Positions 1 to 22,230 of a stretch of DNA of 24,000 bases are shown in pieces; within the stretch, counting starts at the first letter, position 1; every line of letters starts with the position of its first letter. A model generated the notes under the pieces. That model worked only from the letters and a program-made list of their open reading frames with translations, was not told where the DNA came from and searched no databases. The stretch is from Acidocella facilis ATCC 35904 (lineage in GTDB: Bacteria > Pseudomonadota > Alphaproteobacteria > Acetobacterales > Acetobacteraceae): NCBI RefSeq assembly GCF_000687875.1, contig NZ_JHYG01000009.1, positions 33,634-57,633 on the forward strand, written 5' to 3'. The translations under genes were made by a program, and so were the position numbers.

Positions 1-688
1 CGCGCCGGCGGCGCACGATCGGCGGGTAGGCCGCCAGGAAGGCCTGGCCGACATCGCGGGTGAAGGCGAAATCCGCCGCGACATCGCCACTATCGAGATA
101 ATCATAGAAAATCCCGCCGGCGCCGCGTGGTTCATTGCGATGCGGGAGGTAGAAATATTCATCGCACCAGGCTTTGAATTTTTCATAATAGCCGGGATCG
201 TGCGCATCGCAGGCGGCCTGATAGGCGGCGTGGAAGAAGGCGGCATCCTCGGTGGCTTCCGGCGTGCCGGGCTGCAGCGGGGTGAGATCCCCGCCGCCGC
301 CGAACCAGCCCTTGGCGGTGACGATCATGCGGGTGTTCATATGCACCGCCGGGATTTTCGGGCTGCGCGGATGCACGACCAGCGAAATCCCCGCCGCCCA
401 GAACGCAGCACCTGCCTCGGTGCCGGGAATTTTCGCGGCGAAATCCGGGCTCAGCGTGCCATCCACCACCGAGATATTCACCCCGGCCTTCTCGAATACC
501 TGGCCGCGCAGCACGCTCATCGTGCCGCCGCCGCCGCCCGGGCGCTCCCAGCTGGCGCGCTGGAACCGGGCAGCGCCGCCGGCTTCCTGCTCGATCGTCT
601 CGAATTCGGCGCAGATCCGGTCGCGCAGGGCGGCGAACCAGGTGGCGGCGTCCTGTTTCAGGGCGGCATGGGGGGGCGGGCTGGTCAT
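1..688 (-). CDS. hemF: Oxygen-dependent coproporphyrinogen III oxidase, 5' part (3' end runs off the window)
   Basis: Manual minus-strand translation from the ATG at 688-686 gives MTSPPPHAALKQDAATWFAALRDRICAEFE...RPGGGGGTMSVLRGQVFEKAGVNISVV...AGISLVVHPRSPKIPAVHMNTR...GWFGGGGDLTP...HRNEPRGAGGIFYDYL. These are typical HemF motifs. The ORF is missing from the supplied track because it is open at the window edge. Confidence 0.85.
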   Translation of the reverse strand, partial: MTSPPPHAALKQDAATWFAALRDRICAEFETIEQEAGGAARFQRASWERPGGGGGTMSVLRGQVFEKAGVNISVVDGTLSPDFAAKIPGTEAGAAFWAAGISLVVHPRSPKIPAVHMNTRMIVTAKGWFGGGGDLTPLQPGTPEATEDAAFFHAAYQAACDAHDPGYYEKFKAWCDEYFYLPHRNEPRGAGGIFYDYLDSGDVAADFAFTRDVGQAFLAAYPPIVRRRR

Positions 689-797
689 GGCGCCTGCTTA
701 AGCCATGCCCGGCCATCGATCCACACTTGAAATTTTTTCATTGCCTTGCCACGCTGCAACCAAGGGAGGAGACTTAACTCCTCCAGGGAGCGAACAC

Positions 798-1355
798 ATG
801 GCTGAACCAACAGCGGATGCGCTTGCGGCGCATGGGACCGAGACCCGGCGCGACTTCCTGAGGCTTCTGGCCGTGGCGGGCGGCGCCATCGGGGTGGGGG
901 CGATCGCCTGGCCGCTGATCGAAGCGCTGAACCCGGACGCGGCGGGGCTGGAAGCGGCCCGGCCGGTGGTGCTGGTTTCCGATATTGCCGAAAATGCCAC
1001 CAAGACGGTGCAATGGGGCGGGCAGACCATCCTGATCCGCCGGCTGACCGACCAGCAGCTCGCCGCCGCCCAGATTGTGCCGATGAGCGCGCTGGTGGAC
1101 CCGCAGGAGGTCTCCGAACGGGTGGCGCCAGATGATGGGCATATCGTCGTGGTGATCGGCATGAATACCGGCGCGCCCTGCGCCTTGCAGGGGAGTGCGC
1201 CGGGCGATCCGCGTGGCGATTATGGCGGCTGGGTCAGCCCCTGCGATGGCAGCGAATATGACGCGCTGGGGCGGGTGCGGGCCGGGCCGGCGCCGCGAAA
1301 CCTGGCCATCCCGCGCTTTCGCTTCATCGATAAACACCAACTCCAGCTGGGTTAG
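798..1355 (+). CDS. petA: Rieske-fold ubiquinol-cytochrome c reductase iron-sulfur subunit homolog (PetA-like) lacking all four 2Fe-2S ligands
   Basis: The ATG at 798 is preceded by GGGAG 8 nt upstream. A Tat-like motif (TRRDFL) is followed by a TM helix. The C-terminus aligns colinearly to canonical PetA (GGWxxPCxGSxYDxxGRxRxGPAPRNLxIP). Box I reads NTGAPC instead of CTHLGC, and box II reads SPCDGS instead of CPCHGS. Confidence 0.8.
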   Translation: MAEPTADALAAHGTETRRDFLRLLAVAGGAIGVGAIAWPLIEALNPDAAGLEAARPVVLVSDIAENATKTVQWGGQTILIRRLTDQQLAAAQIVPMSALVDPQEVSERVAPDDGHIVVVIGMNTGAPCALQGSAPGDPRGDYGGWVSPCDGSEYDALGRVRAGPAPRNLAIPRFRFIDKHQLQLG

Positions 1356-1364
1356 GACGCGCCA

Positions 1365-2423
1365 ATGCAATCGGAGGCGAAACAGGGCGTTGCCTGCCCC
1401 TATCTGATCAAGGATCGCGCGCCGGGCGGGGCCTGGCATGCGACCTTGCCAACGCTGCTGGGGGCGCTGCTGGCGCTGCTGCTGGCCTCGGGCGCGGTGC
1501 TGGCGGTGTATTATAATCCGCGCGACGCCTATGGCGCGGTGCAGATGATCAATCGCGAGGTGAATGGCGGCTGGCTGGTGCTGGGCTACCATAATACCGG
1601 CGCGTCTTTGGCGTTTCTGGCGCTATATGCGCAGCTGTTCCGGCTGTTGCTGACCCGCGGCTACCGTGGCCCGGCGCGGTTTGCCTGGATGCTCTGGGTG
1701 AAGCTGCTGGCGGTGCTGCTGCTCTCCGGCTGGCTGGGCTTCGTGCTGCAGGGCGGGGCAGGGGGCGCGCTCTCGCTCACCCATGCCAGCGATGCCGCGC
1801 TGACCCTGCCGGGCTTTCCCGGCGCGGTGGCGCTGTGGATTTTCGGTGGCCCGTCCGGCCCCGGCACGTTGGCTCGGCTGCTGGTGTTCCATGTGCTGCT
1901 GGCGGCTTGCCCGGTTTGGGTGATCTGCTGGGCGCGCTGCGCGGCACGGCGGGCGCGGCCGGCGCCGGAGGGCCGGGCGGTGGCGTTCTGGCCGGTCTAT
2001 GCGTCGCAATATTTCGCGGCCTTGGCGGCGCTGGCGCTGTTCTTCACGCTGCTGCTGGCCTTCGCCCCGCATTGGGGGCAGAGCGCCCAGGCCATGCTGC
2101 CGGGCGATGTGCTGCCGATGGTAATCTCCTATCCCTGGTATTTGCAGCCGGTGGCGCATCTTGCCGGGCTGATCCCGGGCGATGGCGGGGCGATTTTGGT
2201 GGTGATTCTGGCTGCGGCCACGCTTTACGCGCTGCCCTGGCTAGATCGTTCCAACGGCGCCCCACCCGGCCGGCTCTATCGCGGGCTGACGCTGCTGCTG
2301 GGGCTGGATGTGCTGGCTCTGGGCTGGGCCAGCGCGCCGGTGCTGCAGATCATTTTCGGCATCTGGTTTTTCATCCATTTCCTCGTGCTCACCCCCCTCG
2401 TCACCGCCGCGGAGGCCAAATAA
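1365..2423 (+). CDS. petB: Cytochrome b homolog (PetB-like), short (352 aa) and divergent, with two of four heme His ligands substituted
   Basis: Recognisable cytochrome b blocks are present (REVNGGW, YHNTGASLAFLALY, LLVFHVLL, AFWPVY, PWY). It is polytopic and hydrophobic and sits between petA and petC. Its stop overlaps the petC start (TAATG). Confidence 0.75.
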   Translation: MQSEAKQGVACPYLIKDRAPGGAWHATLPTLLGALLALLLASGAVLAVYYNPRDAYGAVQMINREVNGGWLVLGYHNTGASLAFLALYAQLFRLLLTRGYRGPARFAWMLWVKLLAVLLLSGWLGFVLQGGAGGALSLTHASDAALTLPGFPGAVALWIFGGPSGPGTLARLLVFHVLLAACPVWVICWARCAARRARPAPEGRAVAFWPVYASQYFAALAALALFFTLLLAFAPHWGQSAQAMLPGDVLPMVISYPWYLQPVAHLAGLIPGDGGAILVVILAAATLYALPWLDRSNGAPPGRLYRGLTLLLGLDVLALGWASAPVLQIIFGIWFFIHFLVLTPLVTAAEAK

Positions 2424-3115
2424 TGCGCGTTTTGCTGATGTCGGGCTTAGCACTCGGGCTGCTGGCGGGTGGGGCGGCGCAGGCGCAGACCCCGTCTTTC
2501 CCCTCCTCCGGCGCCTTCGGGCATATCGATGATGAAGCCGCCCAGCGCGGGCTGGCGGTGTATCAGGGCGTGTGCGCCAGCTGCCACAGCCTCAACCAGC
2601 TACATTACCGGGATCTTGCGGGAATCGGGCTGGATACGGCGCAGATCGCCGGGCTTGCCAATGCGGTGAAGCTGGCCACCGGCCAGCCCGCCACCCCGGA
2701 TGATGTGTTCAAGGCCCCCGCGGCGATGAGCATGGGCGGGGCGGTGCCGCCGGATCTCTCCAGCATCGTCGCCCAGCGCCGCGATGGCACGCGCTATATT
2801 TACCGCTTCCTCACCGGCTTCGCCCCGGCCCCGGCCGGGGTGACGATGTTGCCAGGGCATTATTACAACCGCGCTTATCCGGGCGGGCAGGTTGCCATGC
2901 CGCCGGTGCTGCGGGACAATGCGGTGACTTACGCGGACGGGACCAAGGCCACACAGGCGCAGGAAGCCGCGGATGTCGCGGAGTTTCTGACATGGGCGTC
3001 CGATCCAAACCTCACCGCCCGGCATGTTCTGGGGATCAGGGCGGGGATCTTCTTCGCCTTCCTGACGCTGGTGGCGCTGGCGACCAAAAGGCGGATCTGG
3101 AAGCAGGAGGGCTGA
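2423..3115 (+). CDS. petC: Cytochrome c1 (PetC), apparently intact
   Basis: The ATG at 2423 overlaps the petB stop. Signal peptide MRVLLMSGLALGLLAGGAAQA is present. The heme motif CASCH lies at 2573-2587. PPDLS, YIY, AMPP (Met ligand) and VTYADGTKAT..DV.EFL.WA..P blocks are conserved, and there is a C-terminal TM anchor. Confidence 0.85.
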   Translation: MRVLLMSGLALGLLAGGAAQAQTPSFPSSGAFGHIDDEAAQRGLAVYQGVCASCHSLNQLHYRDLAGIGLDTAQIAGLANAVKLATGQPATPDDVFKAPAAMSMGGAVPPDLSSIVAQRRDGTRYIYRFLTGFAPAPAGVTMLPGHYYNRAYPGGQVAMPPVLRDNAVTYADGTKATQAQEAADVAEFLTWASDPNLTARHVLGIRAGIFFAFLTLVALATKRRIWKQEG

Positions 3116-3750: not shown

Positions 3751-4440
3751 ATGGTTCCGGCCTGGCTCAATGATCTGGCGATGCTGTCCCTGGCCGCCGC
3801 GTTCATCAGTGCGCTGATTATTTTGTGGGATCTGCGTGCCCGCCCGCAGGCGATGGCGGTGATGAACCCGGTCTGGCCGGTCACCGCCTTATATTTCGGG
3901 CCGCTCGGGCTCTGGGCCTATTGGCGGCTGGGGCACGCGGCGCCGGCATCGCATCACGCGCATAATCACCATCATCATCACGGCGATGACAAACCGTTCT
4001 GGGTGCAGGTCTTCGCCGGCACCACCCATTGCGGGGCGGGCTGCACGCTGGGCGATATTGTCGCGGAATTTCTGGTGTTTTTCTCAGGGCTGGCGATCGC
4101 CGGCTCGGTGTTCGCGGGGCAACTGGTGCTGGATTATGCCTTCGCCTTCCTGCTCGGCATCGTCTTTCAATATTATTCCATCGTGCCGATGCGCGGGCTG
4201 CAGCCGGCCGAGGGCATCAAGGCGGCGGTGAAGGCGGATTTCTGGTCGCTCACCGCCTTCGAGGTCGGGCTGTTCGCCTGGATGGCGCTCACCCGCTTCG
4301 TGTTTTTCGGCCCCAGCCTGCAGCCGGACAGCGCCACCTACTGGTTCATGATGCAGATCGGCATGATCATCGGCTTCGCCACGGCGTTTCCGATGAACTG
4401 GCTGCTGATCAAATCCGGGGTGAAGGAGCCCTGCATGTAG
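3751..4440 (+). CDS. DUF4396-like integral membrane protein with a His-rich loop
   Basis: AGGAGG lies upstream of the ATG at 3751. The protein has multiple TM helices, the motif THCGAGCTLGD, and the loop HHAHNHHHHHGDD. Confidence 0.7.
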   Translation: MVPAWLNDLAMLSLAAAFISALIILWDLRARPQAMAVMNPVWPVTALYFGPLGLWAYWRLGHAAPASHHAHNHHHHHGDDKPFWVQVFAGTTHCGAGCTLGDIVAEFLVFFSGLAIAGSVFAGQLVLDYAFAFLLGIVFQYYSIVPMRGLQPAEGIKAAVKADFWSLTAFEVGLFAWMALTRFVFFGPSLQPDSATYWFMMQIGMIIGFATAFPMNWLLIKSGVKEPCM

Positions 4441-8512: not shown

Positions 8513-8853
8513 GCCGGCTGGTGCAGCTGCCGCCCGCCGGGGTGGCGGAATGGAGTCCGATCGCGCCGGAAAAAGTGATTTCCGGCGAACCGATGGCGCG
8601 CACGATCGTGCTGTATGAGAACCCGGCACGCGGACTCGCCGCCGGGGAATGGGAAGCCAGCCCCGGCAAATGGCGGATCGCCTATACCGAGTGGGAATAT
8701 ATGGAGATCATCTCCGGCGCCTGCGTGGTGGAGGGCGATGATGGCCGGCGGATCGAGGCGGGGCCTGGGGATAAATTCGTGATCGAGCCCGGCTTCACCG
8801 GCACCTGGGAGGTGCTCTCGGCGCTGCGCAAGAGCTGGGTGATCCAGGAATAG
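8509..8853 (+). CDS. Cupin domain protein (DUF861/EutQ-like)
   Basis: The 114-aa ORF starts with an ATGA overlap onto the upstream gene. It has a cupin-like beta pattern (WEYMEIISGACVVEGDDG..IEAGPGDKFVIEPGFTGTWEV). Confidence 0.65.
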   Translation: MSRLVQLPPAGVAEWSPIAPEKVISGEPMARTIVLYENPARGLAAGEWEASPGKWRIAYTEWEYMEIISGACVVEGDDGRRIEAGPGDKFVIEPGFTGTWEVLSALRKSWVIQE

Positions 8854-8872
8854 CTGAAATTAGCGGAAGTGC

Positions 8873-8901
8873 TTGACGCGGCCCCTTGGGCGGTCTAGAC
8901 G
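8873..8901 (+). promoter_or_regulatory. Candidate sigma70-type promoter of rpsT
   Basis: TTGACG (8873-8878), a 17-nt spacer, then TAGACG (8896-8901), about 40 nt upstream of the rpsT ATG. The -10 element is weak. Confidence 0.3.
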
Positions 8902-8939
8902 GCGCGCTCCATTACACACACCTTTTTTGTTCGGATAAC

Positions 8940-9209
8940 ATGGCCAATATCGCATCTGCCCAGAAACGCATCCGCCAGACGCTGAAGCGCACGGCGCGCA
9001 ACAAGGCGCGCAAGTCCCGCGTCCACACCTTCATCCGCAAGGTTGAAGAGGCCGTGGCGGCTGGCGACAAGGCAGCCGCGCAGGCTGCGTTGATCGCTGC
9101 CCAGCCGGAGCTACAGCGCGCGGCTGGCAAGGGCGTGCTGAAGGCGAATGCGGTTGCCCGCAAGATCTCCCGCCTGTCAGCCAGCGTGAAGGCCGTCGCC
9201 GCCGCTTAA
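8940..9209 (+). CDS. rpsT: 30S ribosomal protein S20
   Basis: [38 protein letters not shown]... is a canonical bS20 N-terminus. The protein is 89 aa. Confidence 0.95.
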
Positions 9210-9260
9210 TGCGCCGGTTGGGATAATCCTCCGGGTTGTCCCAAAAAATATACGTTTTTG

Positions 9261-9308
9261 AACCGCCGTCATCTTGTTGTAATGGCAAGATACGGCGGTT
9301 TTCTATTC
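9261..9308 (+). terminator. Rho-independent terminator of rpsT
   Basis: AACCGCCGTCATCTTG / CAAGATACGGCGGTT forms a stem with one bulge and is followed by TTTTCTATTC. Confidence 0.7.
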
Positions 9309-9650
9309 TTGGTTGCAAGCCCAGGCTTTTGCTATGGCAAGTAGGTAGGCGCAAAGAAAGTTTTTTATTTGTAGTCTTTTGAATTTAAACGTTTTTTTCG
9401 AAGTGTCAGCAGCTTGTTCGCAAAGCTGTCGCATTTGTCGGCTTGCTTCGGCGAGGCGTTTAGACCTAATGTCCAAGCCTCAATTGACTGTTCAGGACTG
9501 TCTCATTTCTGAGAAGGCGCCCTTTTCCCAAGGGTTTGCTTTGCGGAATCGGTCCTTTGCGGCGCTGTGTTCGGGGTTAGGCAAAGCAGAATGGGTATCA
9601 ACCTAGAGATCAATTCCTCTGGTCAGGGCGGCGCTGCGCTGCAAACCTCC
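9309..9650 (+). promoter_or_regulatory. Low-GC dnaA upstream/leader region with an AT-rich tract
   Basis: By direct count, 9361-9400 is about 20% GC and 9361-9420 is 30% GC, against a high-GC background. Direct repeats are present: GACTGT x2 (9486-9501) and CTTTGCGG x2 (9539-9562). Confidence 0.4.
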
Positions 9651-11036
9651 ATGATATGGAATGAAGAGGCACGGCTGGCTGAGCAATGGGGCCGCGTGCG
9701 CGCCCGGCTGCAGGCGGAAGTGGGTGAGGTCGAATATCGCACCTGGCTGAAGCAGGTGAGCTTTGGCGGTGTTGCCGGCGACGAGGCGGTGGTGCTGCTG
9801 CCGACCCGCTTTCTGCGCGACTGGGTGAACAAGGAATATGGCGAGCTGATCGCCTCCTTCTGGCAGGCTGAGAATCCGGGCGTGAAGCGGGTTGAGTTCC
9901 GCACTGGCGCGCCCTCCGCGCGTCCGGCCGCGCCGGATCTGGCCGAGCCGGCCGCGCGGCCGGTGGCCGGGCAGGCGGCGATGCCGGCGCCGCGCCAGGA
10001 GAACATGGCCGGGCTGGACCAGCGTTTTACCTTCGAGACCTTCGTCGTCGGCAAGCCGAACGAGTTCGCCTATGCCTGCGCGCGGCGGGTGGCCGAGAGC
10101 CCGGCGACGCCGGGCTTCAACCCGCTGTTCCTTTATGGCGGTGTCGGGCTGGGCAAGACCCATCTGATGCACGCCATCGCCTGGGAGCTGTCCACCAATG
10201 CGCGCGGCGGGCGGCCGGTCTCGGTGGCCTATATGTCCGCCGAGCGCTTCATGTACCGCTTCATCAACGCGCTGCGCTCGCAATCCACGCTGGAATTCAA
10301 GAACGAGCTGCGGTCCGTCGACGTGCTGATGATCGACGATCTGCAGTTCCTGATCGGCAAGGACAACACCCAGGAAGAATTCTTCCACACCTTCAACGCG
10401 CTGGTGGATGCGGGCAAGCAGATCGTCATCTCCGCCGACAAATCCCCCTCCGACCTCTCGGGGCTGGAGGACCGGCTGCGTACCCGCCTGGGCTGCGGCA
10501 TCGTCGCGGATCTGCACGCCACCACATTCGAGCTGCGCTATTCCATTCTGGAGGCCAAGGCGCAGCGCGCCGGGGTGGAGGTGCCGCCGAAGGTGGTGGA
10601 ATTCCTCGCCCGCAAGATCACCAGCAATAACCGTGAGCTGGAAGGCGCGCTGAACCGCCTCGTCGCGCATGCCAATCTGTTCAACCGGCAGGTGACGCTG
10701 GATACCGCGCATGAGGTGCTGCACGATGTGCTGAAGGCGCATGACCGCAAGATCTCCATCCAGGAAATCCAGAAGCGCGTCTGCGAGCATTATAATATCC
10801 GCATCGCCGAGATGAGCTCCGCCCGGCGGGCGCGCAACATCGCCCGGCCGCGCCAGGTGGCAATGTACCTGGCCAAGCAGCTGACCTCGAAGAGCCTGCC
10901 CGATATCGGCCGGCATTTCGGCGACCGCGACCATACCACCGTCATGCATGCGGTCTCGCGGGTGACCGAGCTGATCGGCCAGGATGCCGCTTTCGCCGAG
11001 GATGTCGAGCTGCTCAAGCGCATGCTGGAGAACTGA
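9651..11036 (+). CDS. dnaA: Chromosomal replication initiator protein DnaA
   Basis: Walker A GGVGLGKTHL, the box VII region, and the C-terminal DNA-binding helix (RPRQVAMYLAKQLTSKSLPDIGRHFGDRDHTTVMHA) are present. The start at ATG 9651 was chosen by N-terminal similarity (WGRVRARLQAEVGE..Y.TWL). GTG 9567 and ATG 9591 are alternatives. Confidence 0.92.
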   Translation: MIWNEEARLAEQWGRVRARLQAEVGEVEYRTWLKQVSFGGVAGDEAVVLLPTRFLRDWVNKEYGELIASFWQAENPGVKRVEFRTGAPSARPAAPDLAEPAARPVAGQAAMPAPRQENMAGLDQRFTFETFVVGKPNEFAYACARRVAESPATPGFNPLFLYGGVGLGKTHLMHAIAWELSTNARGGRPVSVAYMSAERFMYRFINALRSQSTLEFKNELRSVDVLMIDDLQFLIGKDNTQEEFFHTFNALVDAGKQIVISADKSPSDLSGLEDRLRTRLGCGIVADLHATTFELRYSILEAKAQRAGVEVPPKVVEFLARKITSNNRELEGALNRLVAHANLFNRQVTLDTAHEVLHDVLKAHDRKISIQEIQKRVCEHYNIRIAEMSSARRARNIARPRQVAMYLAKQLTSKSLPDIGRHFGDRDHTTVMHAVSRVTELIGQDAAFAEDVELLKRMLEN

Positions 11037-11058
11037 ACCCGCCTTTGCCGGCGGTGAG

Positions 11059-11088
11059 AAAGGGGCCCGCGGGGCCCCTTTTCTTTGG
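11059..11088 (+). terminator. Rho-independent (potentially bidirectional) terminator after dnaA
   Basis: A perfect 10-bp stem (AAAGGGGCCC-GCG-GGGCCCCTTT) is followed by TCTTT, with an A-run on the 5' side. Confidence 0.75.
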
Positions 11089-11186
11089 CCGAATCCCTGG
11101 CTTTGCAAGCCCCTGGTCAGCTTGCTACTCTAAGGCCCGAATCGCGCCGCAAACCAAGTGATTCGATCGCAGTCTGGAAGGGTATC

Positions 11187-12314
11187 ATGAAGTTCAAGGC
11201 CGATCGCGCCACGCTGATGAAGTCGCTCGCTCACGTGCAGAACGTGGTGGAGAAGCGCAATACCATTCCCATTCTCGCCAACGTGCTGCTCTCGGTGCAG
11301 AATGGCCGGCTTTCCATCGCCGCGACCGATCTGGAGATCGCGCTGGTGGAAGAGGTGGCGGCGGAGACGCTGCGCGACGGCGCCATCACCGTGCCGGCGG
11401 CGACCTTGTATGAGATTGTCCGCCGCCAGCCGGAGAATGCGGTGATCGAGCTCGATCATCCGGGCGGGGACGCGCCGCTGGCGCTGCGCGCCGGGCGCTA
11501 TTCCACCAGCCTGGTGGCGCTCTCGGTCGAGGAATTCCCGAAGCTCGATGCCGGCAAGCTCTCGCACAGCTTCGTGCTCTCGGCGATCGAGCTGCGCGGG
11601 CTGATCGACCGCACCCGCTTTGCCATCTCCACCGAGGAGACGCGCTATTATCTCAACGGCATCTATCTGCACGCCGCCGAGGGCCAGGACGGCCCGGTGA
11701 TCCGCGCGGTGGCGACGGACGGGCATCGTCTGGCGCGCGTTGAGGAGCCGCTCCCGAGCGGGGCGGCTGGTATGCCCGGCATCATCGTGCCGCGCAAGAC
11801 CGTGACCGAGCTGCGCAAGCTGCTGGATGAGGCGAGCGGCGAGGTGGAGGTGGCGCTTTCCGAGACGCGCATCCAGTTCACCATCGGCACCATGCGCCTG
11901 ACCAGCAAGCTGATCGATGGCACCTTCCCGGATTATGACCGCGTGATCCCGCGGGGGAATGACAAGATCCTGCGGGTGGACAAGAAGGATTTCAACGATG
12001 CGGTCGGCCGCGTCTCGGCGATTTCGGCGGAGAAGCACCGGCCGGTGAAGCTCTCGCTGGCGAAGGAGCTGCTGGTGATCTCGGCGGCCTCCGCCGAGCA
12101 GGGCTCGGCCTCCGAGGAGCTAGGCGGGGATCTGGTGGATTACCAGTCCGGGCCGTTGGAAATCGGCTTCCAGGCGCGCTATCTCTCGGATGTCACCGAC
12201 CAGATCAAGTCCGGCAAGGTGGAATTCGCCTTCGCTGACGGCGCCGCGCCGACGCTGGTGCGTGAGGAGAATGACAGCTCGGCGGTTTATGTTTTGATGC
12301 CGATGCGGGTGTGA
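11187..12314 (+). CDS. dnaN: DNA polymerase III beta sliding clamp
   Basis: MKFKADRATLMKSLAHVQNVVEKRNTIPILANVLL is a typical DnaN N-terminus. GGAAGG lies upstream of the ATG at 11187. The protein is 375 aa. Confidence 0.92.
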   Translation: MKFKADRATLMKSLAHVQNVVEKRNTIPILANVLLSVQNGRLSIAATDLEIALVEEVAAETLRDGAITVPAATLYEIVRRQPENAVIELDHPGGDAPLALRAGRYSTSLVALSVEEFPKLDAGKLSHSFVLSAIELRGLIDRTRFAISTEETRYYLNGIYLHAAEGQDGPVIRAVATDGHRLARVEEPLPSGAAGMPGIIVPRKTVTELRKLLDEASGEVEVALSETRIQFTIGTMRLTSKLIDGTFPDYDRVIPRGNDKILRVDKKDFNDAVGRVSAISAEKHRPVKLSLAKELLVISAASAEQGSASEELGGDLVDYQSGPLEIGFQARYLSDVTDQIKSGKVEFAFADGAAPTLVREENDSSAVYVLMPMRV

Positions 12315-12321
12315 AGGTTTT

Positions 12322-12347
12322 GTGGCCCTTTTTGAAAAAAGGGCCAC
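12322..12347. repeat. Palindrome GTGGCCCTTTTT-G-AAAAAAGGGCCAC
   Basis: A perfect hairpin lies 8 nt after the dnaN stop. The A/T runs are inside the stem rather than flanking it. Confidence 0.6.
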
Positions 12348-12484
12348 GCCCTCCGGCGGCTTTCCAGCACCGCTTCGCGATGCTGGAACCTTGGCCGCCT
12401 GCGCCCAAAAACGTTTGCGCCTGGGTGCTGGGGGTTTTCCACGCCGTTGCCAGGGCTTCACCGCCCGTGAGCAAAAGTTTTTGC

Positions 12485-12508
12485 TGCCGCTTTTTTCAAA
12501 AAGCGGCA
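12485..12508. repeat. Palindrome TGCCGCTTTTT-TC-AAAAAGCGGCA
   Basis: A perfect hairpin lies 17 nt before the recF start. Its 12-nt core is the reverse complement of the core at 12322-12347. Confidence 0.6.
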
Positions 12509-12524
12509 AAGGACCGCCGTCATA

Positions 12525-13637
12525 TTGCTATCCCGCCTGACGCTCACCGATTTCCGCTCCTACGCCACGCTGCGCTTTGAGGCGCCGGCGCGGCGCCTGG
12601 TGTTCACCGGCCCGAACGGCGCGGGCAAGACCAATCTGCTGGAAGCGGCCTCGCTGCTGGTCCCTGGGCGCGGCCTGCGCGGGGCAAAATTCGCCGAGCT
12701 GGCGCGCCAGGGCGGCGCCGGGGGCTGGGCGGTGGCCGCACAGTTTTCCAACGGGCTGGAGATCGGCACCGGGGCGGTGGAAGGGGCGCCGGAGCGGCGG
12801 GAATTCCGCCTCAACGGGGTGAAGCCCCGGGCGCAATCGGATGTCGCGGAGCAGCTCGCCGCTGTCTGGCTGACCCCACAGATGGACCGGCTGTTCACGG
12901 ATACCGCCTCCGGCCGACGTAAATTCCTGGATCGCCTGGTGATCGCGCTGGAGCCGTTCCATGCGCGCGAGATCGCGGCCTTCGAGAGTGCCTCCGCCCA
13001 GCGCAACCGGCTGCTGGCCGAGCCGCGTTACGACCCTGCCTGGGTGGCGGGGCTGGAGGATGCGATGGCCCGCCATGCCGTCGCCGCCACGGCGGCCCGG
13101 CTGGGGCTGATCGCGCGGCTGAATGCGAGCCTGGAGGCGGGCGCGGCGGACCCGTTTCCGCGGGTGACACTGGGGTTGGCCTGCCCGATCGCGCAGCTTC
13201 TGGACGCGGCTGCGGCGCTGGATGTGGAAGACTGGCTGCGCGGCGCGCTGGCGGCCTCGCGCGCCACCGATGCGGCGGTGAAATCCTCAGGCTACGGCCC
13301 GCAGAAGGCCGATCTGCTGATTGCCGATGCCCAGGCCGGCCGCCCCGCCGCGCTCTCCTCCACCGGCCAGCAGAAGGCGATGCTGATCGGCATCGTGCTC
13401 GGCCATGTCGCTTTGATTACCGCGCTGCGGGGCGCCCCGCCGCTGCTGCTGCTGGATGAGCCGCTGGTGCATCTGGATGCGCAGCGGCGCGGCGCCTTGT
13501 TCGCTGCCCTGGCCCGGATGGACGCGCCGGCCTGGCTGACCGGCACGGATCAGGAGCTGTTCGCGGGGCTGGACGCCGCGCGTCTGGCCGTGCGCGAGAG
13601 CCTCTTAGAGCATCAAGCTTTTCGCTTGAGGCTCTAA
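12525..13637 (+). CDS. recF: DNA replication and repair protein RecF
   Basis: TTG start. LTLTDFRSY, Walker A GPNGAGKTNLLEA, the signature STGQQKA and Walker B LLLLDEP are present. The last 10 codons and the stop lie inside repeat copy 2. Confidence 0.9.
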   Translation: MLSRLTLTDFRSYATLRFEAPARRLVFTGPNGAGKTNLLEAASLLVPGRGLRGAKFAELARQGGAGGWAVAAQFSNGLEIGTGAVEGAPERREFRLNGVKPRAQSDVAEQLAAVWLTPQMDRLFTDTASGRRKFLDRLVIALEPFHAREIAAFESASAQRNRLLAEPRYDPAWVAGLEDAMARHAVAATAARLGLIARLNASLEAGAADPFPRVTLGLACPIAQLLDAAAALDVEDWLRGALAASRATDAAVKSSGYGPQKADLLIADAQAGRPAALSSTGQQKAMLIGIVLGHVALITALRGAPPLLLLDEPLVHLDAQRRGALFAALARMDAPAWLTGTDQELFAGLDAARLAVRESLLEHQAFRLRL

Positions 13638-19387: not shown

Positions 19388-19455
19388 TTTTTATTGATTT
19401 GATTAACCTGTCGTTTTAAATCTGATTCCGGAATAATCGCGCGGAGAAGCGTTTG

Positions 19456-22230
19456 ATGTCCGGCTTGACGCAAGGCGGCCCGATCTTGCTGGGAACGGCA
19501 ACCCCCGCCTCGTTGAGCCTGGCGAGCGGACTTTCCCTCACCTTGGCCGGCCAGGCGGCAACAGACAGCCCGGCGCTGGTCAGCGGGCTTTATGGCGATC
19601 AATCCTCGAACTGGACCATCGCGACCAGCGCCACGCTGGTCGCGGAGCTGACGCTGGCCAGCGGCGCGGCTGTCGGGGTGGGGCTCGAACTGGCCGGGGC
19701 CGGCACCATTGATAATGCTCTGGGTGGGACGCTGTCCGGCAATCTGGAAGGGGTGGTGCTGGCTTCGGGCGGGATCCTGGTCAGCCAGGGGCTTATCGAA
19801 GGGGGCGTTGCGGGCGGGGTAGGCTTGCAGCGGATCGGCGTGCGCATGGCCAGCGGCGCGCTGGAGAACGACGCGACCGGGACGATCACTGGTGGCGCCT
19901 ATGGTGTCAGCCTCGGCGGAGGTGGTGTGGTCAGCAATGCGGGCAGCATTTCCGGCGGGTTGGCGGGGATGGTGCTGGGTGCCAGCGGGCTGTTGGAAAA
20001 TCAGGCAGGCGGGGTGGTGCAAGGCGGGCTGGCCGGGCTGGTGCTGGGCGGCGGCGCCAGCCTGGTCAATCAGGGCGAGGTCCAGGCCACGAGCATCGCC
20101 GCCGGGCATGACGGGGTGATTTTGAGCGCCGGCGCCTATCTCGGCAATGCGGGGGTCATTGCGGGGTTCGATGCGGCTTATGCCGGGGCGGGTCCGGTGC
20201 GGCTGAATAATGGCGGCACCATGCTGGGCGGCGGGAGCATCGCGCTGGCCTTCCCGGCGAGCGGCTATGGCTTCACCACCGGTGCCGCGGTGGCGCTGGC
20301 GGCGGGGCAGGTCCAGAATACCGGGCTGATTGAGGGCGCCAGCGCGCCGTCCGGTTCCGTCTTGCGGCAGGGCACGGCGGGAGCCGGCATGGTGCTCGGC
20401 GCTGGCACATTGGTGAATGGCGGCGTGATTGCCGGAGGCGGCGGAGGCTCTGCCGGGTTCGGCGGCGTTGGCCTGTCCGGCGGGGCGGGGCTGGTTGCCA
20501 GCAATGATGGCACGCTGCTGGGCGGTGGCGGCTTCTATGGCGGGGCCGCGGCGATGCTGGCCGGCGCCACCTTGGTCAATCGCGGTTCGATCGCCGGCGG
20601 CAGCGGGACGCAGACCGGCGGCAACGGTGTGGTGCTGATGAACGATGCCCTGCTGGTGAATGCGGGCAGCATCCAGGGCGGGGCCGGGACGCGCTATGGC
20701 TGGGGCGAAGGGCTGGGGGCGGGGGTGGCGCTCTATACCGGCACGGTGCTCAATCAGGGGCTGCTCTCGGGCGGCGGCGGCGCCTTTATCGGGCTCTGGA
20801 TGGGCGGGGGCAGCGTGCAGAATATCGGCACCATCCTCGGCCATGCGGCGCTGGCGATGCAGGGGGGCAGCTTCACCAATGGCGGGCTGGTCGAGGGCGC
20901 GGCGGTGGCGCTGGACCTGGCCGGGGGGGCTTTCACCAATGCCGGCACGCTCGCCGGCAGCTTCGCCGCCTATATCAGCGAAGCCAGCCCCAGCCTCACC
21001 GTCGCCCCGGGCGGCGTGTTCGAGGGGAGGGTGACGGCCGTGAGCGGCGGCGGCACGCTGCTGCTCTCCGGCAGCCATGGCACATTGGATATGGGGGCAA
21101 GCTTTTCCGGCTTTTCCGAGATCTCCTTCGCCGGCACGGGCTGGATGCTGGCCGGGGCGGTGGCCGAGCTTGCCGGCGGCCAGACCCTCGCCGGGTTCGG
21201 TGCGGGGGATGTTCTGCGCCTGGACGGGGTGAGTGCCAGCAGCGCCAGCCTCGTCGCCGGGACCGGGCTGGTGCTGAGCGGGGCCAGCGGGACGGAAACC
21301 ATCGCCCTGGCCGGTTTCGATCAGGCCGGGCCGGTGACGCTCAGCCAGACCGCAGGCGGTGCCGAGATCGTCATCTGCTACCGGCGCGGGACCATGATCC
21401 AGACCGTGGAGGGCGAGCGCGATGTCGTGTCGCTGCGCATTGGCGATGTGCTGCCGACGCGCTTTGGCGGCCGCCAGCCGATTCGCTGGATCGGCCGCCA
21501 GCGTTTCGGGCCGGAGGCGCTGCGCGGCCAGCGCGCGCGCTGGCCGGTTTGTATCCAGAAGGGCGCGCTCGGCATGGGCCTGCCGCGGCGCGATCTGTTC
21601 GTCTCCCCGGGCCATTCCCTGCTGCTGGGCGGGGTGCTGGTGTTGGCGGAGGCGCTGGTCAACGGCGTCACCATCACCCAGCCAGAGCCGGCAGAGGCGG
21701 TTGAGTATGTCCTGCCGGAGTTTGAGCGTCATGATTGCCTGCTGGCGGAAAGCGTCTGGGCCGAGAGCTTTGCCGACGGGCCGGACCTGCGCGCGCAGTT
21801 TGACAATGGCGCGGCGTTTCTGGCGGCCCATCCGGGCTGGCAGGCGCCGTCCGCGCTCAGCTTGTGCGCCCCGCGCTTCCTCGCCGGCCCCCGCCTGGCC
21901 GCCGCGCTGCGCCCGTTTCTGCCGCCGCCGCCGGGCTTCGGGGCGCTGCGTGGCTGTATCGACATTGCCGATGGGCGCATGGTCTCCGGCTGGGCGCAGG
22001 ATATCGCCTCACCGCTCTGGCCGCAGATGCTGGAGATCTATGCCGGACGAACCAGGCTGGGCACGGTGCTGGCCTGCGACCATCGGCCGGATCTCGAACA
22101 AGCCGGCATCGGCATCGGCCGCGCCGGTTTCAGCTTCAGGGCGCCGCGCCGTTACAACCCGGCGCGGTTGCGCATTTCCCGTGTGGGGGACGGCGCTTCG
22201 CTCCCCGTTCCGGTGCGCCGCGCCGCCTGA
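19456..22230 (+). CDS. Large Gly-rich beta-helix repeat protein with a C-terminal Hint (Hedgehog/intein-like, Hint_2-type) domain
   Basis: GGAGA lies 8 nt upstream of the ATG at 19456, and a TTG at 19453 is also in frame. About 640 aa consist of degenerate ~20-25-aa repeats (G..L.N.G.I.GG..G..L). The Hint block then begins at the Cys codon 21376-21378: CYRRGTMIQTVEGERDVVSLRIGDVLPT..GGRQPIRWIGRQ...GALGMGLPRRDLFVSPGHSLLL. Confidence 0.8.
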   Translation: MSGLTQGGPILLGTATPASLSLASGLSLTLAGQAATDSPALVSGLYGDQSSNWTIATSATLVAELTLASGAAVGVGLELAGAGTIDNALGGTLSGNLEGVVLASGGILVSQGLIEGGVAGGVGLQRIGVRMASGALENDATGTITGGAYGVSLGGGGVVSNAGSISGGLAGMVLGASGLLENQAGGVVQGGLAGLVLGGGASLVNQGEVQATSIAAGHDGVILSAGAYLGNAGVIAGFDAAYAGAGPVRLNNGGTMLGGGSIALAFPASGYGFTTGAAVALAAGQVQNTGLIEGASAPSGSVLRQGTAGAGMVLGAGTLVNGGVIAGGGGGSAGFGGVGLSGGAGLVASNDGTLLGGGGFYGGAAAMLAGATLVNRGSIAGGSGTQTGGNGVVLMNDALLVNAGSIQGGAGTRYGWGEGLGAGVALYTGTVLNQGLLSGGGGAFIGLWMGGGSVQNIGTILGHAALAMQGGSFTNGGLVEGAAVALDLAGGAFTNAGTLAGSFAAYISEASPSLTVAPGGVFEGRVTAVSGGGTLLLSGSHGTLDMGASFSGFSEISFAGTGWMLAGAVAELAGGQTLAGFGAGDVLRLDGVSASSASLVAGTGLVLSGASGTETIALAGFDQAGPVTLSQTAGGAEIVICYRRGTMIQTVEGERDVVSLRIGDVLPTRFGGRQPIRWIGRQRFGPEALRGQRARWPVCIQKGALGMGLPRRDLFVSPGHSLLLGGVLVLAEALVNGVTITQPEPAEAVEYVLPEFERHDCLLAESVWAESFADGPDLRAQFDNGAAFLAAHPGWQAPSALSLCAPRFLAGPRLAAALRPFLPPPPGFGALRGCIDIADGRMVSGWAQDIASPLWPQMLEIYAGRTRLGTVLACDHRPDLEQAGIGIGRAGFSFRAPRRYNPARLRISRVGDGASLPVPVRRAA

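Follow-up and report, generated by a model that had tools for sequence, protein, structure and literature searches.

What becomes of the Rieske subunit of a cytochrome bc1 complex once the residues that bind its [2Fe-2S] cluster are gone? The question is raised by a petA-like gene of Acidocella facilis ATCC 35904, which stands at the head of a petA-petB-petC operon on contig NZ_JHYG01000009.1. We analyzed 24,000 nucleotides around this operon (positions 33,634 to 57,633 of the contig; hereafter the window, in whose coordinates all positions are given). A preliminary description, made from the letters of the window alone, had proposed that the encoded PetA has exchanged all four cluster ligands, has kept the two cysteines of the stabilizing disulfide together with its export signal and membrane anchor, and is a maintained protein, not a decaying pseudogene. 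All of these proposals were borne out. The Q cycle is very probably dead in this complex, and PetA may have been kept as a structural subunit.

Background

Ligand-less PetA in Acidocella is already known from a published in-silico description. Degli Esposti et al. (2023, Microbiol Spectr 11:e00575-23; PMC10715153; Fig. 7 / Fig. S8C) reported a 'deranged' bc1 iron-sulfur protein of Acidocella that is without three or four Fe2S2 ligands, keeps its disulfide cysteines and is encoded in a retained petABC operon. In the same paper, cytochrome b of acidophilic Acetobacteraceae is without the heme bH histidines, cytochrome c1 is intact, and Acidiphilium is without petA altogether. The authors take this operon to encode the Acidocella bc1, ask why cytochrome oxidase (COX) is kept 'while having a deranged bc1 complex', and propose a structural role for the complex (Complex I stabilization; a Cyc2/Cyc1 bypass feeding COX). 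Every sequence-level statement of that paper was reproduced here, and the window represents the subtype with loss of four ligands. A literature search for other cluster-less Rieske proteins returned nothing relevant.

Loss of the cluster ligands

On sequence similarity the window protein is a PetA homolog, with a relationship far beyond chance. The NCBIfam equivalog model TIGR01416 (Rieske_proteo) matches it at 119.3 bits (cutoff 97.4, E 1.7e-34), pairing residues 16-185 with model positions 2-176 and thus covering the full length, and the PetA chains of Rhodobacter and Paracoccus in the Protein Data Bank (PDB) match it at E values of about 1e-30. The Pfam Rieske profile PF00355 scores 16.6 bits, under its cutoff of 20.3, as expected because the ligand boxes are gone.

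The register of the two boxes was taken from a multiple alignment of 32 sequences, comprising the window PetA, 22 close variant homologs and 9 canonical alphaproteobacterial PetA sequences. This alignment has zero gaps between the boxes, and matches G-[VI]-CTHLGC...W-F-CPCHGS column by column to G-M-NTGAPC...W-V-SPCDGS. Together with the translation of the two boxes (Table 1), it supports the substitution of all four ligands that had been proposed (Cys to Asn and His to Gly in box I, Cys to Ser and His to Asp in box II), with no Cys or His at structurally equivalent positions. Retention of the disulfide cysteines was equally clear, since C128 and C149, the predicted pair, are invariant in 32/32 aligned sequences and in all Acidocella-type loci.

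A pairwise HMMER alignment with PetA of R. capsulatus gave a different register, in which C128 lies opposite the first ligand Cys and box I is shifted by five residues, because the R. capsulatus protein has an insertion just upstream. We rejected this register in favor of the gap-free multiple alignment with insertion-free relatives. The whole window PetA contains only two Cys (C128, C149) and three His (positions 12, 115 and 180), and no His lies within about 10 residues of either box, whatever the register. Since only two Cys are present and no His is near them, a 2Cys/2His Rieske cluster is impossible on the predicted protein sequence. The window protein, as translated, cannot be a redox-active Rieske protein, and both the [2Fe-2S] signal in electron paramagnetic resonance (EPR; g about 1.90) and quinol:cytochrome c reductase activity are predicted to be absent. 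Sequencing error was excluded as the source of the substitutions because two independent assemblies (L001 and L006) repeat NTGAPC/SPCDGS.

Remodeling of cytochrome b and retention of cytochrome c1

The loss extends to the partner of PetA. The window PetB scores only 64 bits against the Pfam profile Cytochrome_B (PF00033) and, at 352 aa, falls about 50-90 residues short of canonical bacterial cytochrome b. It keeps the histidines of heme bL (H76, 1590-1592; H176, 1890-1892) and has lost those of heme bH, which are replaced by Q90 (1632-1634) and A190 (1932-1934). The PEWY motif reads YPWY (SYPWY at 2127-2141), with loss of its glutamate, and the Qo motif of the cd1 helix is remodeled from LPWGQMSYWGATVIT to LQGGAGGALSLTHAS. 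Throughout the clade of variant sequences the heme bL histidines are invariant; nearly all members lack the first bH His, and every one lacks the PEWY Glu, the consensus being PPWY.

Cytochrome c1 is intact, with its heme motif CASCH at 2573-2587 and the Met159 ligand at 2897-2899. The stop codon of petB overlaps the start codon of petC (ATG 2423) as TAATG (2421-2425), an arrangement that suggests translational coupling of the two genes. GC content at third codon positions is 0.80-0.84 across petA, petB and petC (petA 0.80), as in ordinary coding sequence of this 67% GC genome.

Maintenance of the gene

The reading frame had been described as free of stops and frameshifts. This was confirmed for the window, where the open reading frame (ORF) that encloses petA (705..1355, plus strand) has no internal stop in the ORF list or its translation, and extended to about 70 independent loci that have diverged to about 50% identity and show no frame disruption.

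Selection was measured as dN/dS by the Nei-Gojobori method (NG86). Between the window and the locus of its closest relative, L001, petA has a dN/dS of 0.05 (dS 0.14), and against Acidocella aminolytica the value is 0.29. Clade medians, which are imprecise where dS is near 1, are 0.28 for petA (2107 pairs), 0.25 for petC and 0.44 for petB. By region, the subdomain that once bound the cluster (aa 117-172) has a petA dN/dS of 0.17, compared with 0.31 for the anchor and 0.31 for the base, and its column entropy in the variant clade is close to the canonical value (0.55 vs 0.50 bits). N123, T124, L130, D150 and L157 are invariant or nearly so in the variant clade; position 147 exchanges Cys and Ser freely, and position 125 is Gly or Ala. 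Purifying selection acts on the petA of this clade, most strongly on the loops that once bound the cluster, and the window petA is not a pseudogene, in agreement with the preliminary description.

The hinge behaves in the opposite way. The neck motif xADVLALxS is near-invariant in canonical Rieske subunits, and its equivalent is the most variable stretch of the ligand-less clade, with an entropy of 1.6-2.6 bits at positions 49-53 (AGLEA in the window) vs 0-0.8 bits in canonical sequences. This loss of constraint is consistent with a head that is no longer required to swing.

Features of the PetA protein

Translation of petA likely starts at ATG 798, which is preceded by a Shine-Dalgarno-like GGGAG motif 8 nt upstream. 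The leader also contains a perfect 7-bp hairpin, GGAGGAG-ACTTAA-CTCCTCC, at 765-784 just 5' of the ribosome-binding site; its folding z of -1.8 is not significant and it is possibly due to chance.

The N-terminus carries a twin-arginine translocation (Tat) signal-anchor, which is recognized by PF10399 (UCR_Fe-S_N, 47.6 bits) and TIGR01409 (27.3 bits). R17, R18, F20 and L21 of the Tat motif are invariant across the variant clade, and W38-P39 is invariant in variant and canonical sequences alike in the multiple alignment. The periplasmic domain keeps the Rieske fold in an AlphaFold2 (AF2) prediction, in which the predicted local distance difference test (pLDDT) of the head domain is 93-98. In Foldseek searches with this head the best soluble-domain match was the bovine Rieske fragment 1rie, with a target-normalized template modeling (TM) score of 0.94 and a root mean square deviation (rmsd) of 1.4 A, and 2nuk gave a TM score of 0.84. 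This retention of the fold is partly built into the model because canonical Rieske proteins were present in its input alignment.

Table 1 Features of the petABC operon, its upstream neighbor and a second group of ligand-less loci (window coordinates unless a locus is named)
Feature	Position	Strand	Remarks
petA-like gene	798..1355	+	185-aa subunit with predicted Rieske fold, without cluster ligands; stop TAG 1353-1355
Twin-arginine motif TRRDFL	843..860	+	aa 16-21; PF10399, TIGR01409
Membrane anchor helix	861..929	+	aa 22-44; AF2 helix at residues 17-44
Neck/hinge equivalent DAAGLEAARP	936..965	+	aa 47-56; canonical xADVLALxS lost
Box I equivalent NTGAPC (canonical CTHLGC)	1164..1181	+	ligand Cys to Asn, ligand His to Gly, Cys128 kept
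Box II equivalent SPCDGS (canonical CPCHGS)	1236..1253	+	ligand Cys to Ser, Cys149 kept, ligand His to Asp
petB-like cytochrome b	1365..2423	+	352 aa; Pfam Cytochrome_B, PDB alignment, clade tally
petC, cytochrome c1	2423..3115	+	230 aa, intact; Pfam Cytochrom_C1 200.7 bits
Presumed hemF (oxygen-dependent coproporphyrinogen III oxidase), 5' part	1..688	-	divergent from petA; runs off the left end
Second-clade loci	L072:1-511, L073:685-1237, L074:2797-3349, L080:10001-10627		ligand-less PetA

Distribution among relatives

The closest genomic relatives of the window PetA are found in a metagenome-assembled genome (MAG) of an uncultured Acidocella sp. (L001, 98% aa identity) and in A. aminolytica DSM 11237 (L002, 66%). 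Of the protein-database clusters, the 22 that match best (52-98% identity) carry PF10399 only, and matches from about 48% identity down also carry PF00355. Named members of these 22 clusters are Acidocella sp. or 'Rhodospirillales bacterium' MAGs. From metagenomes, 74 related loci were retrieved, most of them in samples of acidic peat and moss.

The Acidocella-type loci all have NT[GA]x[PSAT]C as box I and [CS]PCDGS as box II, apart from one locus with SACDGS and one more that misaligns at box I. None of them carries CTHLGC/CPCHGS, the pair that is read in three canonical control loci. Box II is CPCDGS in most members of the clade, where only three ligands are lost; the four-ligand loss of the window comes with SPCDGS, and its exact pair NTGAPC/SPCDGS recurs in L001 and L006. 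The order petA-petB-petC is kept in every locus whose contig is long enough to show it. Members of the variant clade are 50-70% identical among themselves and about 42-48% identical to canonical PetA, compared with 75-80% identity among canonical Acetobacteraceae PetA sequences.

A second clade of ligand-less PetA (proteins P0239-P0274) is 36-41% identical to the window protein. Box I in this clade is shortened by a one-residue deletion to G-[PAST]-[DA]-G-C, and box II reads SPCDGS. Most members keep the disulfide Cys pair, and the Tat anchor is the only Pfam domain detected. In some side branches the disulfide cysteines are gone as well (CGRDGG/CPMDGS and CDRNGI/CPT[TN]GS). The cytochrome b of this clade is nearer to canonical, being about 400 aa long, with PQWY and loss of only the first bH His, and the clade shares hemF-petABC-PNP synteny with a canonical relative. 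In a neighbor-joining tree with the boxes masked, each ligand-less clade received 100% bootstrap support and their sisterhood 64%, a grouping to which long-branch attraction may contribute. The second clade may have arrived at SPCDGS independently of the Acidocella clade. In one of its loci (L074:3435-5376) cytochrome b and c1 occupy one uninterrupted frame of 647 aa, an apparent b-c1 fusion; in L080 the two are separate genes with a one-base overlap.

A proposed role for PetA without its cluster

The explanation that we favor, and consider somewhat more probable than its competitors taken together, is that the Q cycle is dead and that PetA serves as a non-redox structural subunit holding a b(L)-c1 complex. 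It draws on the absence of any possible cluster, the loss of the Qo and bH determinants in cytochrome b, the retention of bL and c1, and purifying selection on all three genes. Its two parts differ in strength. We are highly confident that the Q cycle is dead; for the scaffold role of PetA, the evidence leaves us about evenly divided. The protein would be inserted by Tat, and its head would sit on cytochrome b, where it would probably be static because the hinge motif has lost its constraint. The ligand-less PetA would then be a pseudo-enzyme that keeps the b(L)-c1 complex assembled, and this complex might act as a membrane-anchored cytochrome c1 and/or as a scaffold of a respiratory supercomplex (Complex I, cytochrome oxidase), with electrons reaching the c-type cytochromes via other routes.

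Several points weigh against this explanation. The structural-scaffold role is a matter of inference both here and in PMC10715153, and we found no experimental follow-up of that in-silico description in the literature. The NG86 ratios lose precision where dS approaches 1 in a genome of 67% GC, and the fold retained in the AF2 model is partly built in, as noted above. Moreover, the constraint on the former cluster loops, with Asn123 and Asp150 invariant, exceeds the obvious needs of a passive scaffold and could indicate a specific new function.

Such a function would follow if the head had been neofunctionalized, so that the former cluster pocket binds another metal or cofactor, or plugs or gates the remodeled Qo site, and the b(L)-c1 complex has gained a new catalytic or regulatory activity. 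Asp150, Cys/Ser147 and Asn123 together, or the two 'disulfide' cysteines in reduced form, could be the holders of such a metal or cofactor. That the former cluster loops are the most constrained part of the protein (dN/dS 0.17; entropy 0.55 bits), that the replacement residues N123, T124, D150, L130 and L157 are fixed or nearly so, and that the heme bL ligands and c1 are strictly kept would all fit this scenario, as would the three Cys plus Asp (CPCDGS and C128) available in most clade members. We nevertheless consider it unlikely. C147 is freely swapped with Ser, in the window as elsewhere, position 125 may be Gly or Ala, and Asn binds metals poorly; only two Cys and no known cofactor motif are present in the window protein, and side branches of the related clade lose cysteines too. 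A more specific version places the head permanently docked on the remodeled Qo site in a new role, as gate or plug or as holder of another ligand or metal, with heme bL and c1 as a neofunctionalized electron-entry/relay module for cytochrome oxidase in acidophiles. It is suggested because selection on the protein is strongest in the pocket (invariant Asn123, Thr124, Cys128-Cys149, Asp150, Gly-Ser, Tyr154) and the hinge has lost constraint, and it is best regarded as a speculative proposal of low probability.

The operon could instead be a relic under relaxed selection, left over when the respiratory chain switched to ubiquinol oxidases and other ways of reducing cytochrome c, and kept for the downstream c1 through polar effects or translational coupling. 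The variant clade does diverge faster than canonical Acetobacteraceae PetA, petB has the highest dN/dS of the three genes, petB and petC are joined by TAATG, and Acidiphilium has lost petA altogether (PMC10715153). This account is hard to square with the absence of frameshifts and stops in about 70 loci diverged to about 50% identity, or with a petA dN/dS as low as that of petC, and the Tat motif and specific replacement residues are invariant. We find it unlikely that relaxed selection explains the locus.

A further possibility is that a canonical petA and bc1 lie elsewhere in the genome and that the operon in the window serves as an accessory copy whose role has diverged. Some bacteria do carry two pet operons, e.g. 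petI and petII of Acidithiobacillus, and the window represents only 24 kb of the genome. A specialized paralog is quite improbable here, given that the hemF-petABC synteny is ancestral and shared with the canonical relative L081, and that the locus lies near dnaA; the operon therefore looks like the vertically inherited copy. The deranged operon is also treated as Acidocella's bc1 in PMC10715153. When a canonical Acetobacteraceae PetA was used as the query, 120/120 matches listed were canonical, and no Acidocella-named canonical PetA occurred among these 120 best matches listed or among the 98 canonical matches to the window PetA, although few matches are named and this point is weak.

That errors of sequencing or assembly, or a misregistered alignment, merely mimic the ligand loss has a negligible probability: the R. 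capsulatus comparison does show that the register can be ambiguous pairwise, but the boxes are identical in independent assemblies, the motif class occurs in about 70 loci, the multiple alignment is gap-free in this region, and there are two Cys and no nearby His under any register.

The sequence-level finding is already in the literature, and the remaining value of the locus lies in experiments. A core subunit of Complex III that has long been kept without its cofactor amounts to a natural 'pseudo-enzyme' experiment, which could tell apart the parts of a Rieske protein that serve assembly, Tat insertion and the stability of supercomplexes from those that serve electron transfer. It could further explain how cytochrome oxidase is fed in acidophilic Acetobacteraceae when no Q cycle operates.

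Neighboring genes

Divergent from petA, on the minus strand, lies an ORF whose translation starts MTSPPPH and which we take to be hemF by recognition of its sequence. The equivalent position in L080 and L081 carries PF01218 (Coprogen_oxidas), and the arrangement of hemF and petABC is common to the window, L080 (second ligand-less clade) and L081 (canonical relative). A DUF4396 gene (3751-4440, plus strand) follows just downstream of the pet operon and a gene of the UDG family. Its product is a membrane protein in which a histidine-rich stretch (HHAHNHHHHHGDD) precedes the domain and which is possibly metal-related.

The remaining window is housekeeping chromosome near the origin genes dnaA, dnaN and recF. 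In the replication-origin neighborhood (8630-13637), dnaA occupies 9567-11036, dnaN 11085-12314 and recF 12525-13637. A 0.9-kb intergenic region lies upstream of dnaA; a scan of the sequence upstream of dnaA for DnaA boxes of the E. coli type found 1 near-match (8766-8774) vs 1.16 expected, which is chance level. Farther on, an ORF of 925 aa (19453-22230, plus strand) has a C-terminal Hint_2 (intein-like/Hedgehog-type) domain and no further Pfam match.

Comparison with known systems

A precedent for retention without metal ligands exists in the same family of bacteria. According to PMC10715153, which cites Matsutani et al. 2014, the COX1-like CtaD of Acetobacter persists although its metal ligands have been lost, presumably in a structural capacity. 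As that citation presents it, CtaD resembles the window PetA in being a respiratory catalytic subunit of the Acetobacteraceae that is kept without metal ligands, and differs in belonging to another protein family and complex.

The second ligand-less clade shares with the window PetA the hemF-petABC synteny, the SPCDGS box II and a mostly kept Cys pair. It differs in the deletion in box I, in a cytochrome b closer to canonical, and in side branches without the disulfide Cys.

Canonical PetA (TIGR01416; 1zrt_E, 2yiu_C, 1rie) is matched by the window protein in full-length colinear homology, Tat signal-anchor, predicted fold, disulfide pair, operon and the framework GxWxCPCxGSxYDxxGRxxxGPAxxNL. 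Unlike canonical PetA, the window protein is without both Cys and both His ligands and without the hinge ADVLAL, and it falls under the PF00355 cutoff. In addition, Ser157, the donor of a hydrogen bond to the cluster (Ser163 in bovine numbering), is Leu in the window protein.

The closest counterpart is the deranged bc1 of Acidocella described in PMC10715153, which has the same taxon, the same ligand loss with kept cysteines, a cytochrome b without bH ligands, an intact c1 and the petABC operon. Nothing essential separates the two. Selection statistics are absent from that paper, as are analyses of the hinge and of environmental breadth, and to its description the present analysis adds selection statistics, the loss of constraint on the hinge, the environmental breadth of the variant and a second ligand-less clade.

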